Shown here: positions 23,832 to 28,854 of the stretch, piece by piece
Layout: each line of letters begins with the position of its first letter
How positions within the stretch are numbered: the stretch's first letter is position 1
Origin: a virus
Lineage: Duplodnaviria > Heunggongvirae > Uroviricota > Caudoviricetes
Length of the DNA: 32,064 nucleotides
IMG/VR virus record: IMGVR_UViG_2693429524_000019
Span: 1 to 32,064 of that record
Reading direction: 5' to 3' (one strand)
Translations under genes and position numbers: made by a program
Notes under the pieces: generated by a model
The model's database searches: none
What the model saw: the letters and a program-made list of their open reading frames with translations, nothing else
Told to the model about the DNA's origin: nothing

Positions 23832-24090
23832 TAGTTTGTGCTGCCCTGTTTTTCTCAAAAGTCCTGATATCAGCCTTATCCCTGTTGCACTGTGCTAACG
23901 CTGACAACAACGCAACATTCAGGTTAAGGCTGGCTCCCCACGTAAACGGGTCGGGTAAATCTGGCTGGGGTGTTTCATCCGTCAGACTGGCTGGTAACGG
24001 AACGACCGGCACCGACACGTATACCGTTCGCGTACTCGTGCAACCGCTTAACTGCGCCAGAAGGAACGATACGAACAGCGCAATCATCAT
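23812..24090 (-). CDS. o-spanin Rz1 (outer-membrane lipoprotein), overlapping the 3' end of Rz in another frame
   Basis: MMIALFVSFLLAQLSGC lipobox followed by a proline-rich segment PVVPLPASLTDETPQPDLPDP. Confidence 0.5.
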   Translation of the reverse strand: MMIALFVSFLLAQLSGCTSTRTVYVSVPVVPLPASLTDETPQPDLPDPFTWGASLNLNVALLSALAQCNRDKADIRTFEKNRAAQTNGTIKR

Positions 24091-24367
24091 CCGCAACAGC
24101 CACTTTGATATCTTCCTGGGTTCTCTGTGACTCCAGTGCGATCTGCTGTTTTGCATGCTGGTTAGCCTCTATAACTGTGTTGATGATTTGCAGTGATTGC
24201 AGGACGTTACGGGTAATGGCTGTTGCTGATTCAGCATTTCGTACAGCCTCATCAGCGCGCTCCTTTTCGTGCTGATATTTGCTGTAGTAATGCCCGGCAG
24301 ACCAGATAAAAGAACCGATGACGGTAACAAAGAAGGCAACAATAACCAGCTTATATCTCAGCTTCAT
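23975..24367 (-). CDS. i-spanin Rz
   Basis: 130 aa, N-terminal transmembrane anchor KLVIVAFFVTVIGSFIW then coiled-coil; directly downstream of the endolysin. Confidence 0.65.
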   Translation of the reverse strand: MKLRYKLVIVAFFVTVIGSFIWSAGHYYSKYQHEKERADEAVRNAESATAITRNVLQSLQIINTVIEANQHAKQQIALESQRTQEDIKVAVADDDCAVRIVPSGAVKRLHEYANGIRVGAGRSVTSQSDG

Positions 24368-24827
24368 TTACCACCCCACCAGCTTCTTTAAATCGGGAAA
24401 TCAGGTCACCGATTCTATGTTCATACTGACCGTAACCTGCACCAGGTAACGACGCCCAGATATTGCTGCAACGGTCGATTGCCTGACGAATATCGCCGCG
24501 GTCAATCATCGGTAAAGCGCCACGCTCTTTAATCTGCTGCAGCGCTACAGCATCCTGGCTTTCTGGAGAAAAATCTTTCAGACCAAGTTGCTTGCGGTAG
24601 GCATCCCACCAGCGTGAAAGAAGCTGGTAACGTCCGGCGGCTGTTGATTTGAGTTTCGGATTTAGCGTGACAAGTTTGCGAGGGTGATCGGAGTAATCAG
24701 TGAACAGTTCGCCACCAACAATAACATCATAACCGTGGTTACGTGTCGGTTGTCGCCCGTTATCCGTTCCTTCTGACCATGCCACCATATCAAGGAAAGC
24801 TTTACGCTGGGAATTAAGTGTCTGCAT
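24351..24827 (-). CDS. endolysin, lambda R-type lytic transglycosylase
   Basis: 158 aa closely matching recalled lambda R (..NSQRKAFLDMVAWSEGTDNGRQPTRNHGYDVIVGGELFTDYSDHPRKLVTLNPKLKST..); strong SD AAGGAG. Confidence 0.85.
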   Translation of the reverse strand: MQTLNSQRKAFLDMVAWSEGTDNGRQPTRNHGYDVIVGGELFTDYSDHPRKLVTLNPKLKSTAAGRYQLLSRWWDAYRKQLGLKDFSPESQDAVALQQIKERGALPMIDRGDIRQAIDRCSNIWASLPGAGYGQYEHRIGDLISRFKEAGGVVNEAEI

Positions 24828-24830
24828 TAA

Positions 24831-25190
24831 TTACTCCTTATGGGCACCGAACTTGTTACCGATGACCCTCATTGCCGCACCACGAATAGCATCAACACCA
24901 ATCAGCCCCACCCCACCACCAATGGCAACAGAAAGTGATTTAGGCCATCCGACATACTCAAGCGCGGATGCAAAGGTCAGCGTCAGGGCACCACAGAGCA
25001 AAATCTCAAGCGTTTTTCGTTTCCAGCCCCCACCACCGCCAAAATAGGCGATGCGCAAACCAGCCATAACGATCGACATAATCACTGCACCCAGCGGTGT
25101 GTCTCCACGCCACCAGCTCTGAAACAACTCCAGCCAGTCCGGCCAGGTATTTGGGTTATGAGGCATTTCATCATCTCTCACCTCGCACAT
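24831..25190 (-). CDS. holin, three predicted transmembrane helices (class I), possible dual start
   Basis: ATG at 25190 and second ATG at 25166 eight codons later; three hydrophobic segments; immediately upstream of the endolysin. Confidence 0.6.
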   Translation of the reverse strand: MCEVRDDEMPHNPNTWPDWLELFQSWWRGDTPLGAVIMSIVMAGLRIAYFGGGGGWKRKTLEILLCGALTLTFASALEYVGWPKSLSVAIGGGVGLIGVDAIRGAAMRVIGNKFGAHKE

Positions 25191-25289
25191 ATCGCGGGTG
25201 CAAATTGAGGGAATAAAAAATCCCCGAATATTCCAGGAGCGGAAACGGGGAAAGGCGTTGCACTAAATGGGCCTGTCTGCGGCCTTAAA

Positions 25290-25318
25290 TAAAAAAACCC
25301 CGGCAAATGCCGAGGTCA
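25290..25318 (-). terminator. strong intrinsic terminator ~100 bp upstream of the holin gene
   Basis: minus strand CCTCGGC-ATTT-GCCGGGG (7-bp stem) followed by seven T. Confidence 0.65.
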
Positions 25319-25527
25319 GTTAATCGTTGCCGCTGTGAGTGCCGCGGTGCACTATCTCTTTATCAGGCTACTTACGCGTTAAACCGGGTGCCAACCGTAA
25401 CTCAGTGATGCTTTACGCTTCCTCTCCCTCACTACGTCGCCATGGGAGCCCGACCAGATTAACGCTGTCGTCACGTTGCCAATATATGGCATCCAATGCA
25501 TTCTTTTTATTTAGCTATTTCATTTTT

Positions 25528-25558
25528 CTATCCGTCAGAAACAACAAAACCCGCTCAA
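25528..25558 (-). terminator. intrinsic terminator downstream of the ORF6N-like gene
   Basis: minus strand AACCCGCCATTGAGCGGGTT followed by TTGTTGTTTCT. Confidence 0.5.
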
Positions 25559-25662
25559 TGGCGGGTTCTGGTAAAGTTCATGCGCTTGGTTCGCCTCGCG
25601 ATACAGCTTTGCGAAGCGTACCGAAATTGAAGCAGTTTATGGCTAAAATTGCAAGAACTTTT

Positions 25663-26214
25663 TTAAAGCTGCATCAGCCTTTCCACCAGTTTATCTCTGC
25701 GAACAACAAACCAACCATTGGCTCTCGCCAGTTCCAGCCATGACTCAAGGGAAATAACAATATCATCATCCCGCAACTGAATTGTGGAAACAGTGACACC
25801 GCCTCGCTGATAACAGAGAACTCGCGTGTCGTAACTTTTCTGGCATGAAGCTGGCGCTGACAGATCCTTTTGTCTGAAATAGCAGTCTTCCAGTTTTTCG
25901 AACACTTCCCACGCCTGATCGGTTTCCAGCATTTTGGCGTGGCGGGCTGCTCCGCGTTCTGTCCAGAGTATAAGCGAGCGGGTTTTGGGCGAAATTTGTA
26001 ACTGACTTACTGTCAGTCGCAAATTTTTAAGCTCCTCGCCCATAACCTTAAAAAAATGTTTACCTTCAATAAAACGCACAGAGTTGCGCTTATGATTTTG
26101 CTGGATACTGTTTACATCCGCGCCATAGAGGTGCGCCAATAGTTCTGTGGTAATAACTGGGATCTGATTATGGGTAATTGGGGAAAGGTTTTCGACAGAA
26201 ATTTGAGTCGTCAT
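25663..26214 (-). CDS. ORF6N/antirepressor-like DNA-binding protein (moron between Q and lysis genes)
   Basis: 183 aa, SD GAGGG; N-terminal ..ITTELLAHLYGADVNSIQQNHKRNSVRFIEGKHFFKV.. resembles ORF6N-type phage antirepressor N-domains as recalled. Confidence 0.4.
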   Translation of the reverse strand: MTTQISVENLSPITHNQIPVITTELLAHLYGADVNSIQQNHKRNSVRFIEGKHFFKVMGEELKNLRLTVSQLQISPKTRSLILWTERGAARHAKMLETDQAWEVFEKLEDCYFRQKDLSAPASCQKSYDTRVLCYQRGGVTVSTIQLRDDDIVISLESWLELARANGWFVVRRDKLVERLMQL

Positions 26215-26375
26215 GATAACGCCCTCTGGTTGATGAATTTAACTATCACCACCGTCAGGTTCCAATCATTGGGTGGTGAGACGTACAGGGTTGGAACTAC
26301 CGGATCAACCAACCGGCGAGCCTTTCGGCTCCCCCATACGCCCCACCATAATTCAGATGTGCGTGTGCTTACGAC

Positions 26376-26400
26376 AATAAAAAACACGCTCGCGGCGTGT
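26376..26400 (-). terminator. intrinsic terminator ~90 bp downstream of Q (tR'-like candidate)
   Basis: minus strand ACACGC-CGCGA-GCGTGT followed by TTTTTATT. Confidence 0.5.
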
Positions 26401-26488
26401 ATCTGTCGCGGTTGAATATCCGGGGTTCCAATCCCGACGCCAGATTTTGCTGGCGCGTGAGGAATATAGCCCCGGATAACAGATTGAG

Positions 26489-27043
26489 TCAACAGACGGT
26501 TTTTGAATCCCCGGAAGAGAATGCATCACGCATCGGCAGATAGAGCATAAACTCTGCCATTTTCAACCACGCATCTATGCGATTACGGCACGTGGCGTAA
26601 CACCACTCAGGGTGTGCGTCATTCAGCAATTCAGCCATTTTTCGCTTAGTCATCCCCCTCCCTTCATATCGTTGCCGGAGGATACAAATCAATCCTGGGT
26701 GTTCTGCCAGCACTTCACTAATCACACGATCAATGCATAACGCCTCTGCATCAGTACAATGCACCAGCCAGCTTTTTTGCTTGCCGTTGATCATATCCCG
26801 CAAAAAAGCCTCAAGTTCAGGTTTGTCCAGCCCTGCTTTTTTCATCCTCCGGAGCGCCTCGTTAATTGCCGTTTTTGTCAGCTTTTTAGAGGTCAGCAAC
26901 TGGTTAAACATATTTCCCGTCTTACCGCCGCCAATATACGACCAGCGCCCCCACATGCGCAGTTTTCCCTGAATCCAGACACTTTCCAGCGTGGTGAGAC
27001 GAAGGTGTTCCCCGCTTTTGCCTGTATTTGTTGGGTAAATCAT
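26489..27043 (-). CDS. late-gene antitermination protein Q-like
   Basis: 184 aa from ATG at 27043 (ATGA overlap with the ybcO-like stop); ..KLRMWGRWSYIGGG.. and the position upstream of the lysis genes fit the Q family; family assignment from memory only. Confidence 0.55.
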   Translation of the reverse strand: MIYPTNTGKSGEHLRLTTLESVWIQGKLRMWGRWSYIGGGKTGNMFNQLLTSKKLTKTAINEALRRMKKAGLDKPELEAFLRDMINGKQKSWLVHCTDAEALCIDRVISEVLAEHPGLICILRQRYEGRGMTKRKMAELLNDAHPEWCYATCRNRIDAWLKMAEFMLYLPMRDAFSSGDSKTVC

Positions 27044-27330
27044 AAATAACCTTCCTTTCTCCAGATTTCTTGCGTACGAAAAACACCTTCTGCATGCATC
27101 AGGCGTAATTCTTCTTTGGTGTAATCGCTGGTTTTTACCCGCCCGTCGATTAAATCGTGGCATGAGCTGCAGGCAATCGCTGCCTGCATATCGTGTGGTT
27201 TTGTCGCTGTTCCGCACGTCCCCGCCAGCCTGTAATGCGCCAGCACAGATGTTTCGGGATTGTGATTGCAGTAGCCAAGAATTCTGACGGTGCACATCTG
27301 CCCCCGCGCCGCTTTACGTAAATCCACCAT
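27040..27330 (-). CDS. YbcO-like protein (DUF1364, putative nuclease)
   Basis: 96 aa MVDLRKAARGQMCTVRILGYCNHNPETSVLAHYRLAGTCGTATKP..CSSCHDLIDG resembles recalled YbcO Cys pattern. Confidence 0.6.
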   Translation of the reverse strand: MVDLRKAARGQMCTVRILGYCNHNPETSVLAHYRLAGTCGTATKPHDMQAAIACSSCHDLIDGRVKTSDYTKEELRLMHAEGVFRTQEIWRKEGYL

Positions 27331-27929
27331 TACGCAAACTCCAGCAGCTGCGCGGCCACATTTTCGACTTCCTCCGGAGAGGAGAATTTACGGAACAGGA
27401 TCCAGTTCCACAGCACATTCAGTACGGCTTTATAAACCTGCTGAAACTCGGTTTCGTCCATATTCGCAAAAGCGATGGATTTCGCCCGACGCCCGTGGCT
27501 ACCGTCCGGATAAATATGCTCGGTGTAAAATCCGGCCTGAATGGTTACCCACTCGCGGAAAGCGTCAAACGACTTTAGCAATGCCGTATCCCGGGTTCTG
27601 CGTGTTGCAACTGTATTCAGATATTGCTCTGCGGCTTCGCTCAGAGCTGGCGTATGTTCCCGGCCTACTGATTCACACAGGTAATCAACGAATCCTGAAA
27701 CCAGTTTTCGTTCGCGAGGCGTGATCGCCCCTCCGACTGGAGTCCAGTAATCGAATCCGAGTTGCAGAAGTTTGAAAAAACGCTTATGGAATGCGTAGTT
27801 ACGAACGCGCTTAAAATCAGCGTGTATCCACTCACCTATTTTGATTTGATGCAAAAAATCGCAACTCTCCGGCGTCGCCGGGAGAAGTAATCCGGAAGAG
27901 GTTTGTTTGACCAGTTGTATATGCGCCAT
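27330..27929 (-). CDS. nin-region hypothetical protein
   Basis: 199 aa, SD GGAG, coupled (TAATG) to the ybcO-like gene. Confidence 0.4.
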   Translation of the reverse strand: MAHIQLVKQTSSGLLLPATPESCDFLHQIKIGEWIHADFKRVRNYAFHKRFFKLLQLGFDYWTPVGGAITPRERKLVSGFVDYLCESVGREHTPALSEAAEQYLNTVATRRTRDTALLKSFDAFREWVTIQAGFYTEHIYPDGSHGRRAKSIAFANMDETEFQQVYKAVLNVLWNWILFRKFSSPEEVENVAAQLLEFA

Positions 27930-28000
27930 CGTAGTTCTCCGCTGGCGCAGTAGAATGGGTGTTCAGCCCGTTATGTAGTATACCAGAATTAATGCCAATA

Positions 28001-28488: not shown

Positions 28489-28644
28489 TTACTCCTCAGA
28501 TTCGTAAGCTGTGAAGACAGCGACCTCCGTCTGGCCGGTACGGATTCGTACCTCGCAGAGGTCTTTCCTCGTTACCAGTGCCGTCGCTATGACGGTTAAA
28601 CAGATGACGATCAGGGCGATTAACATCGCCTTTTGCTGCTTCAT
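28489..28644 (-). CDS. hokD: Hok/Gef family type I membrane toxin, HokD (RelF)-like
   Basis: 51 aa MKQQKAMLIALIVICLTVIATALVTRKDLCEVRIRTGQTEVAVFTAYESEE, near-identical to recalled HokD; SD AAGGAGAAG upstream. Confidence 0.8.
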   Translation of the reverse strand: MKQQKAMLIALIVICLTVIATALVTRKDLCEVRIRTGQTEVAVFTAYESEE

Positions 28645-28854
28645 AGCCTGCTTCTCCTTGCCTTTCGGCACGTAAGAGGCTAACCTACATTTGTGAGACA
28701 TAGATTGGGCCTCAGATTAATGTTAAGCGTCCTGCAAGACGCGTAATGTTAACTGGGGCTTTTCTCTATCTGCCGTTGGTGTTCATGCCTGAGGCAGATA
28801 GCCTCAAGCACCCGCAGCAATTCTACTTAACTCTCCTTTTCCCGCAAACCGTTT

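Follow-up and report, generated by a model that had tools for sequence, protein, structure and literature searches.

In the Salmonella prophage Gifsy-1, the isrK promoter gives rise to a short RNA of 77 nt as well as to a read-through transcript spanning isrK, orf45, anrP and isrJ; this long transcript is translationally silent, and IsrK activates translation of anrP in trans, with G28 and G31 of IsrK pairing with C162 and C159 (PMC4825925). The same study described STnc1160 as a stable processed Gifsy-1 RNA, and reported that AnrP leads to higher antQ expression and to prophage induction (PMC4825925). As far as summarised in a later paper, the C4 RNA of P1 and P7 regulates ant through its a′/b′ loops and triplicated a/b sites (Citron and Schuster 1990, as cited in PMC7313666). 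The Q regulatory cassette of lambdoid phages has been defined as the Q gene, a promoter, a pause element and a terminator (10.1101/651190), and the put RNAs of phage HK022 are cis-acting antiterminator RNAs located after pL and pR (PMC9378689). Here we describe the interval between a Q-like antiterminator gene and the holin gene (25191-26488) in a 32,064-nt stretch of Caudoviricetes DNA, the IMG/VR record IMGVR_UViG_2693429524_000019, which is referred to as the window. All genes of this Q-to-lysis interval are on the minus strand. We read the interval as a composite of three modules, namely an immI-type antirepressor cassette, the native late leader of the phage and a separately mobile leader module, and give this reading a probability of about 0.7, with the identification of the cassette itself being close to certain.

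The cassette shows direct matches to the Rfam families isrK, c4-a1b1 and C4, in the same order and spacing as found between Q and anrP in Gifsy-1, and these are followed by a gene for an antirepressor-like protein. Its features are as follows:

26492..26463, minus strand: cassette promoter PisrK, with -35 TTGACT, an 18-nt spacer and -10 TATATT (10/12 matches in the promoter scan).
26469..26417, minus strand: Rfam c4-a1b1 match (50.1 bits, gathering cut-off 46.7).
26456..26379, minus strand: IsrK-type small RNA (sRNA), 78 nt, with two 5′ hairpins and a Rho-independent terminator (Rfam isrK, RF01394, 77.7 bits, gathering cut-off 50, full length 1-77).
26431..26425 and 26415..26410, minus strand: candidate decoy sites b1 and a1, respectively, in the IsrK-type RNA.
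26400-26384, minus strand: stem of terminator T1, followed by U6 (dG -7.6 kcal/mol).
26353..26269, minus strand: C4-type antisense RNA, 85 nt (Rfam C4, RF01695, 75.6 bits, gathering cut-off 45; dG -44.6, z-score -5.05).
26311..26304 and 26297..26291, minus strand: C4 loops a′ (TGGTTGAT) and b′, respectively.
26265..26222, minus strand: predicted C4 target region in the antirepressor leader, with b2 (26265..26259), a2 (26234..26227) and the Shine-Dalgarno (SD) sequence GAGGG (26226..26222).
26214..25663, minus strand: AnrP/Ant-type antirepressor gene, 183 aa (Pfam ORF6N, 5.7e-21), with the SD 7 nt before the ATG.

The -35 of PisrK overlaps the TGA stop codon of Q and the predicted start is a G at 26456. 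It is the sole strong σ70 consensus that the promoter scan returned from Q to the holin, and it is homologous, from the -35 onward, to the Gifsy-1 isrK promoter, which has been shown by experiment to drive isrK-orf45-anrP (PMC4825925). The RNA part of the cassette is about 90% identical to the Gifsy-1 isrK locus. In a three-sequence alignment it aligned from the -35 to the antirepressor ATG with a mean column identity of 86%, and no similarity between the window and Gifsy-1 was detected upstream of the -35. The C162 and C159 residues of Gifsy-1 fall within the Rfam C4 region, and STnc1160 corresponds to the C4 part of that locus. The antirepressor is 54% identical to Gifsy-1 AnrP (STM2616, E 3e-64, full length) and consists of an N-terminal ORF6N domain and a divergent C-terminal third, with residues 1-115 being 65-81% identical to the Ant proteins found in Stx phages and a P1-like phage. 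The 183-aa protein is presumed to act as an antirepressor.

The initial annotation, made from the sequence alone, had noted a terminator about 90 bp after Q, a GC-rich structured element of about 80 nt and a 183-aa ORF6N-like gene with its own SD, all of which are borne out, the T1 stem starting 89 nt past the Q stop codon and the domain search returning ORF6N. T1 and the GC-rich element were thus seen, but their role as parts of an antisense-RNA switch on the inserted gene went unrecognised, and the two non-coding RNA identities, the promoter, a second promoter-like unit and a conserved element ending at the last strong terminator were missed. We also considered the GC-rich element as a tRNA, which was ruled out, as ARAGORN predicted no tRNA in the window. 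T1 belongs to the inserted cassette and is most readily explained as the terminator of the IsrK-type sRNA that PisrK would drive.

An exact-match scan of viral contigs for the C4 core yielded 122 loci with 58 unique sequences, and TTGAC-N17/18-GGGGCTATATT was kept in nearly all of the latter. The b sequence of 7-10 nt is present in the second IsrK hairpin (b1), as its reverse complement in a single-stranded C4 segment (b′), and upstream of the antirepressor gene (b2). Apart from a few, all 58 unique loci have b1 identical both to the reverse complement of b′ and to b2, across at least 13 sequence types; the most obvious exceptions are loci that are truncated and lack an antirepressor. The b type is TTGGAAC in the window and TTGGCGT in Gifsy-1. 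The a′ loop, in the second C4 hairpin, comes in 18 distinct versions among the same loci, and is complementary to a1 in the IsrK linker over a mean of 6.5 nt in cognate combinations versus 1.3 nt in non-cognate ones, and to a2, which abuts or overlaps the antirepressor SD, over a mean of 7.1 versus 2.9 nt. In the window, a′ TGGTTGAT pairs with a2 ATCAACCA directly 5′ of GAGGG, and only 54 nt separate the end of C4 from the antirepressor ATG. This three-way covariation speaks for a C4 RNA that occludes the ribosome-binding site of the antirepressor gene and for IsrK as the decoy to which the C4 loops bind instead. Among the viral contig loci L004-L122 the a and b elements were also found reassorted, one a′ loop being combined with as many as four b types, a pattern suggestive of recombination inside the RNA region of about 300 nt.

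The direction of regulation is inferred from the Gifsy-1 and P1 experiments, and would be as follows. The σ70 promoter of the cassette would produce the 78-nt IsrK-type RNA, mostly ending at the weak T1, while transcripts reading through T1 would include both the C4-type antisense RNA and the mRNA of the antirepressor. Pairing of the C4 loops a′ and b′ with a2 and b2, at and just upstream of the antirepressor SD, would switch translation off, and the short IsrK RNA, via a1 and b1, would compete for the C4 loops either in trans or within the precursor, and so switch translation on. The antirepressor would then push the prophage toward induction.

The cassette of about 830 bp (26492..25663) is inserted exactly between the stop codon of Q and what is probably the phage's own late leader. 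This is seen as an insertion polymorphism, since in Escherichia coli strain 44 (locus L125) and several viral contigs the genes DUF1367, DUF1364 and DUF1133-type Q are followed by the counterpart of 25654..25191, with the same 360-nt leader, and the holin, without a cassette. The proposed native late leader has two features:

25654..25615, minus strand: candidate native late promoter P2 (pR′ equivalent), with TTGCAA (25654..25649), 18 nt, TCAATT (25630..25625), 4 nt and TACGCT (25620..25615).
25570..25536, minus strand: terminator T2 (stem 25570-25545), candidate tR′ of the native late leader, with a 10-bp stem (dG -16.1, z-score -5.2).

When written as TTGnnn-N17-19-TnAA(A/T)T-N3-6-TAnGCT, the P2 motif is found downstream of 55/67 loci with a relative of the DUF1133-type Q (50-100% identity, many enterobacterial genera). 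Its position is bimodal, being either at or within about 36 nt of the Q stop codon, or about 840-890 nt downstream and behind a cassette, as in the window, where the cassette displaces it by 837 nt. Across genera P2 keeps TTG, the 18-nt spacer, TnAATT, 4 nt and TAnGCT in fixed register; the sequence of the spacer varies because it encodes the C-terminus of Q. A T-rich run closing a hairpin follows 47-94 nt past the motif, and T2 lies at an equal distance from P2 in the cassette-free relatives. The TACGCT hexamer, -10-like and at about +1, is a possible σ-dependent pause element (SDPE), and the layout of P2 and T2 resembles that of lambda pR′ and, read together with the Q gene, fits the order laid down for a Q regulatory cassette (10.1101/651190). 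In the proposed late switch, Q-modified polymerase would start at P2 (25654..25625) and pass T2 and a further strong terminator, T3, into the holin gene; T2 would also end the cassette transcripts.

Gifsy-1 provides a parallel, as the anrP stop codon there is abutted by TTGCAA-17-TATATT and then IsrJ (L002 33400-33515), and Enterobacter and Klebsiella phages that lack the cassette, such as CobraSix (L194 1501-1610), have homologues of IsrJ where their Q genes end (3′ end). The same cassette has therefore come to separate Q from its probable promoter-terminator unit in two Q lineages that are unrelated to each other, and IsrJ may be the short pR′-tR′ transcript of phages with an 82-type Q.

The strongest competing explanation is that PisrK (26492-26463) is itself the Q-dependent late promoter, with IsrK as a terminated leader like the lambda 6S RNA, Q polymerase passing T1, T2 and T3, and the antirepressor carried as late cargo. 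As the only strong σ70 consensus between Q and holin, PisrK sits where the definition of the Q cassette places pR′ (10.1101/651190), a -10-like CAAAAT is present at about +8 of its transcript, and the cassette lies directly behind three different Q families. However, the same promoter and initial transcribed sequence follow three unrelated Q families, and Q proteins need cognate binding sites. Near-identical copies of the cassette promoter were located behind an 82-type Q (27 loci), a DUF1133-type Q (18), a third type of 131 aa (6) and a 90-aa non-Q open reading frame (ORF; 35), and far from Q in Stx phages, as in Stx phage P27, where it follows ninE and is 2.8 kb ahead of Q, so that the cassette promoter is tied to no particular Q. 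Furthermore, the cassette-free relatives of the DUF1133-type Q carry P2, not PisrK, at the Q stop codon. We consider PisrK an unlikely late promoter, with P2 probably the better candidate, so that the terminators passed by late transcription are probably T2 and T3, but not T1. The earlier claim that late transcription must read through all three terminators is thus probably wrong, while the need for Q-type antitermination of the lysis genes stands, as the strong T2 and T3 would have to be passed on the way to the holin from whichever candidate late promoter is taken. Likewise, the suggestion that the ORF6N-like gene occupies a cargo slot like that of stx is correct in that the gene is inserted between Q and S, and is absent from relatives with the same Q family and holin (L125, L127 and others), but the cassette is upstream of the probable late promoter, unlike stx, which is downstream.

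Several observations weigh against the composite reading. P2 failed the generic σ70 scan, its first hexamer, TCAATT, does not have the A that is usual at the second position of a -10, either of its two -10-like hexamers may be the promoter element and the other the pause element, and no Q-binding element was identified. IsrK, STnc1160 and IsrJ are abundant in Gifsy-1 lysogens without lytic transcription (PMC7067206). This abundance fits constitutive promoters followed by terminators. However, lambda pR′ is constitutive as well, and constitutive IsrK in lysogens therefore does not exclude a role of its promoter as late promoter. For the cassette, the C-terminal third of the 183-aa protein is unlike AnrP, and orf45 is broken in the window, as the frame opened by the conserved ATG at 26350 (26308-26350, minus strand) is 14 codons long and ends 90 nt short of the antirepressor ATG. 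The Gifsy-1 activation route cannot apply unchanged here, since orf45 is needed there for translational coupling.

The broken orf45 also leads to a second alternative, in which the cassette is a decaying remnant whose antirepressor mRNA stays untranslated throughout, so that any remaining activity would be that of the sRNAs, perhaps on targets in the host. Next to the cut of orf45 to 14 codons, this would fit with the disrupted ant genes in several related loci (L014, L015, L081, L103) and with the description of IsrK in Rfam as an Hfq-binding RNA. Against this, the antirepressor ORF of the window is intact with a good SD, and a2 and b2 match the C4 loops perfectly. The orf45 frame reaches the antirepressor start in only 9/58 variants, with the RNA complementarity kept in nearly all, and 31/58 variants lack a full orf45 and yet retain three-way complementarity and an intact ant gene, which makes orf45 a dispensable part and a decaying cassette very improbable.

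The third module of the composite runs from a mini-ORF behind T2 to T3, and contains the following features:

25536..25515, minus strand: SD-like GACGGA (degenerate in the window, GGAGGA in relatives) and the mini-ORF ATG AAA TAG (25523..25515).
25491..25477, minus strand: first hairpin of the module.
25476..25369, minus strand: conserved core of about 110 nt.
25317..25289, minus strand: terminator T3 (stem 25317-25296 and U7), 3′ end of the conserved module, with a 9-bp stem (dG -15.4, z-score -5.0).

T3, about 105-130 nt from the holin start, matches the very strong terminator that had been placed about 100 bp before the holin. An SD and mini-ORF encoding M, MK or MKQ precede the core in 24/25 unique contexts, at 41-74 nt and mostly at 68-69 nt upstream, and in the sole exception the stop codon of a gene for a NusG paralogue takes the place of the mini-ORF. 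The first hairpin differs in sequence by lineage, as does a second hairpin behind the core, and the stem of T3 is preserved by compensatory change in relatives without the U-tract. The core itself is nearly invariant across prophages, phage-plasmids and plasmids of Serratia and Klebsiella (L123, L124, L125 and L171-L193, besides the window). The T2-T3 segment is separately mobile, being present in 36 E. coli genomes and, in L124, behind a different Q of 123 aa, and the module is also carried by E. coli and Salmonella phage-plasmids, a Klebsiella IncF plasmid and two Serratia symbiotica plasmids. At many metagenomic and plasmid loci a cI/LexA-like repressor gene lies about 400 nt upstream of it in the same orientation, so that the module is in the position of a pL leader, while on a Serratia plasmid it is 33 nt past the NusG-paralogue gene and ahead of a VirB/PilX type IV secretion operon. 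Some loci show no Q gene in the flanks examined.

Searches with 25290-25545 gave no Rfam match at E ≤ 1 except a terminator-only OmrA-B match, and none for seven homologous loci either, and the core had no blastn match in 50,697 phage records, including HK022. A small protein gene was rejected, as the 40-aa ORF at 25501..25379 and the other frames are broken in relatives by 1-nt indels and loss of start codons, and differences between lineages were on inspection mostly non-synonymous. The core is also not a strongly folded RNA, with a z-score of -0.19 for the single-sequence fold and an RNAalifold energy of about -19 kcal/mol with one covarying pair (YUCCC/GGGAR, both sides changed in 10 sequences). 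The sequence GGCGACGTAGTG resembles the ops consensus only if a 2-nt insertion is allowed. An ops site of a plasmid RfaH-like factor was discarded, since the ops-like site of IncX plasmids is upstream of prfaH and not downstream (PMC11880322). We tentatively propose that the segment from mini-ORF to T3 (25536..25289) could be a previously undescribed cis-acting leader RNA module, possibly acting on transcription elongation, although we hold this with considerable reserve. It may function in put-like processive antitermination, in ribosome loading against Rho or as a conditional attenuator, and that it takes part in elongation or attenuation where long operons begin is hypothesised from its context.

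A last alternative, in which T2 is just the antirepressor terminator, P2 is another protein-binding or RNA element and the late promoter is elsewhere, for example in the AT-rich stretch at about 25540-25480, could draw on the scan result and atypical first hexamer of P2 and on the TATATT at 25486-25481 just ahead of the core, but is slightly less probable still than a decaying cassette, as the scan found no acceptable -35/-10 pair of a σ70 promoter directly upstream of the core in any of 19 contexts, the core module occurs also at loci with no Q gene in the flanks examined, and the elements of P2 stay in register across genera.

The interval is bordered by the following genes, and contains one further terminator-like site:

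27043..26489, minus strand: Q-like antiterminator gene of the DUF1133 family, 184 aa (Pfam DUF1133, 4.3e-108).
25238-25222, minus strand: weak terminator-like site T4 (z-score -0.8, not significant).
25190..24831, minus strand: lambda-family holin, the first late (lysis) gene (Pfam Phage_holin_3_1, 3.3e-27).

The terminator scan returned 10 terminator-like sites in 24000-28000, versus 4.8 ± 2.3 in shuffles. The Q-like gene is located between YbcO/DUF1364 and the lysis genes, and its product scores just above the cut-off of Pfam Phage_antitermQ (PF06530; 27 versus 26 bits). A profile built from 17 homologues had Q21 as top match in PDB (6p18_P/6jnx_P, E 1.7e-5, collinear), suggesting that DUF1133 Q is distantly related to Q21, and a survey of Stx phages lists DUF1133 as 'Q antiterminator HHPred' (PMC8136144). 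The Q of Gifsy-1, AntQ of the 82 type, was ruled out as a relative, as no similarity with the DUF1133 Q was found. L001 (PP818812.1), labelled 'Actinobacillus phage vB_Apl-pPE4', carries hokD, DUF1367, DUF1364, DUF1133-Q and the cassette at about 86% identity to the window, and L150 (JARKOR010000130.1), a contig of a 'Candidatus Nanosynbacter' metagenome-assembled genome, encodes a Q 91% identical to that of the window; both labels look doubtful (enterobacterial origin or contamination).

The holin gene, named 'phage holin, lambda family' in E. coli relatives, is followed by a lambda R-like endolysin and Rz. In cassette-free relatives the holin begins with MKMP, a dual start like that of lambda S, while in the window and its closest relatives a 1-nt deletion throws the first two codons out of frame (25160-25195, minus strand), leaving as start the ATG at 25166 or the in-frame upstream ATG at 25190 (MCEVRDDEMP). 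The nin-like region contains a hok/sok type I toxin-antitoxin locus (28489-28813, minus strand; Rfam sok, 116 bits), with a Hok-like ORF at 28701..28489 that is labelled hokD in E. coli relatives.

The main content of this locus is already known in kind, from the isrK/anrP locus of Gifsy-1 and from the P1-type control of ant by c4. What goes beyond annotation is the location of the cassette upstream of the probable late promoter, the proposed late-promoter unit of the DUF1133-type Q, and the conserved leader module ending at T3. For annotation, the gain is that seemingly anonymous terminators and a 'structured element' receive names, and a late promoter and pause unit is proposed for a Q family that was uncharacterised. 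IsrK/AnrP of Salmonella and c4/ant of P1 are thereby shown to be one widespread modular switch cassette, with its specificity set by short triplicated sequences. Downstream of Q genes from unrelated families it has landed repeatedly in one place, ahead of the probable late promoter. An antirepressor that promotes induction, controlled by RNA and placed beside the late switch, would bear on spontaneous induction and on prophage cross-talk in E. coli. The mini-ORF and core would be the more important lead if the module indeed acts on elongation.

When compared with the known systems, the leader module is like the HK022 put RNAs by position only, as its core of about 110 nt heads long operons and is often at the pL/putL position; it is larger, with flanking hairpins, is preceded by a mini-ORF and has no detectable sequence similarity to any record of the phage collection. 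The lambdoid arrangement of Q, pR′, SDPE and tR′ in lambda, 21 and 82 is matched by Q, a promoter-like motif, an adjacent -10-like element, a strong terminator 50-90 nt on and the lysis genes, but the window has 830 bp of foreign cassette between Q and the promoter unit, a second strong terminator (T3) with a conserved leader before the holin, and a Q that is only distantly like Q21.

Compared with immI (c4, icd, ant) of P1/P7, as that region is outlined in the source cited above, the window shares a C4-family RNA co-transcribed with its target, two C4 loops with complements on either side, a1/b1 upstream and, in the ribosome-binding region of the antirepressor leader, a2/b2 downstream, and a specificity altered by co-variation of all three copies. 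In contrast to the immI region so outlined, no icd-like ORF lies between C4 and ant in the window, where a2 is next to the SD of the antirepressor gene itself, the a1/b1 part is set apart by a terminator and forms an sRNA of its own, and the host element is a lambdoid prophage instead of a P1-type plasmid prophage. From Gifsy-1 the window differs in its unrelated Q (82-type AntQ there, DUF1133 here), in the broken orf45, which in Gifsy-1 is coupled to anrP by an ATGA overlap, in the diverged C-terminal third of the antirepressor and the b type given above, and in having the P2-T2 unit in the place of IsrJ, with no Rfam isrJ match in the window even at E ≤ 1. Both loci nevertheless share one plan, that of isrK-orf45(STnc1160)-anrP-isrJ downstream of antQ: a Q gene, a promoter at its end, IsrK with a terminator, a C4-like RNA and an ORF6N antirepressor, with a second promoter starting TTGCAA right behind the antirepressor stop codon.

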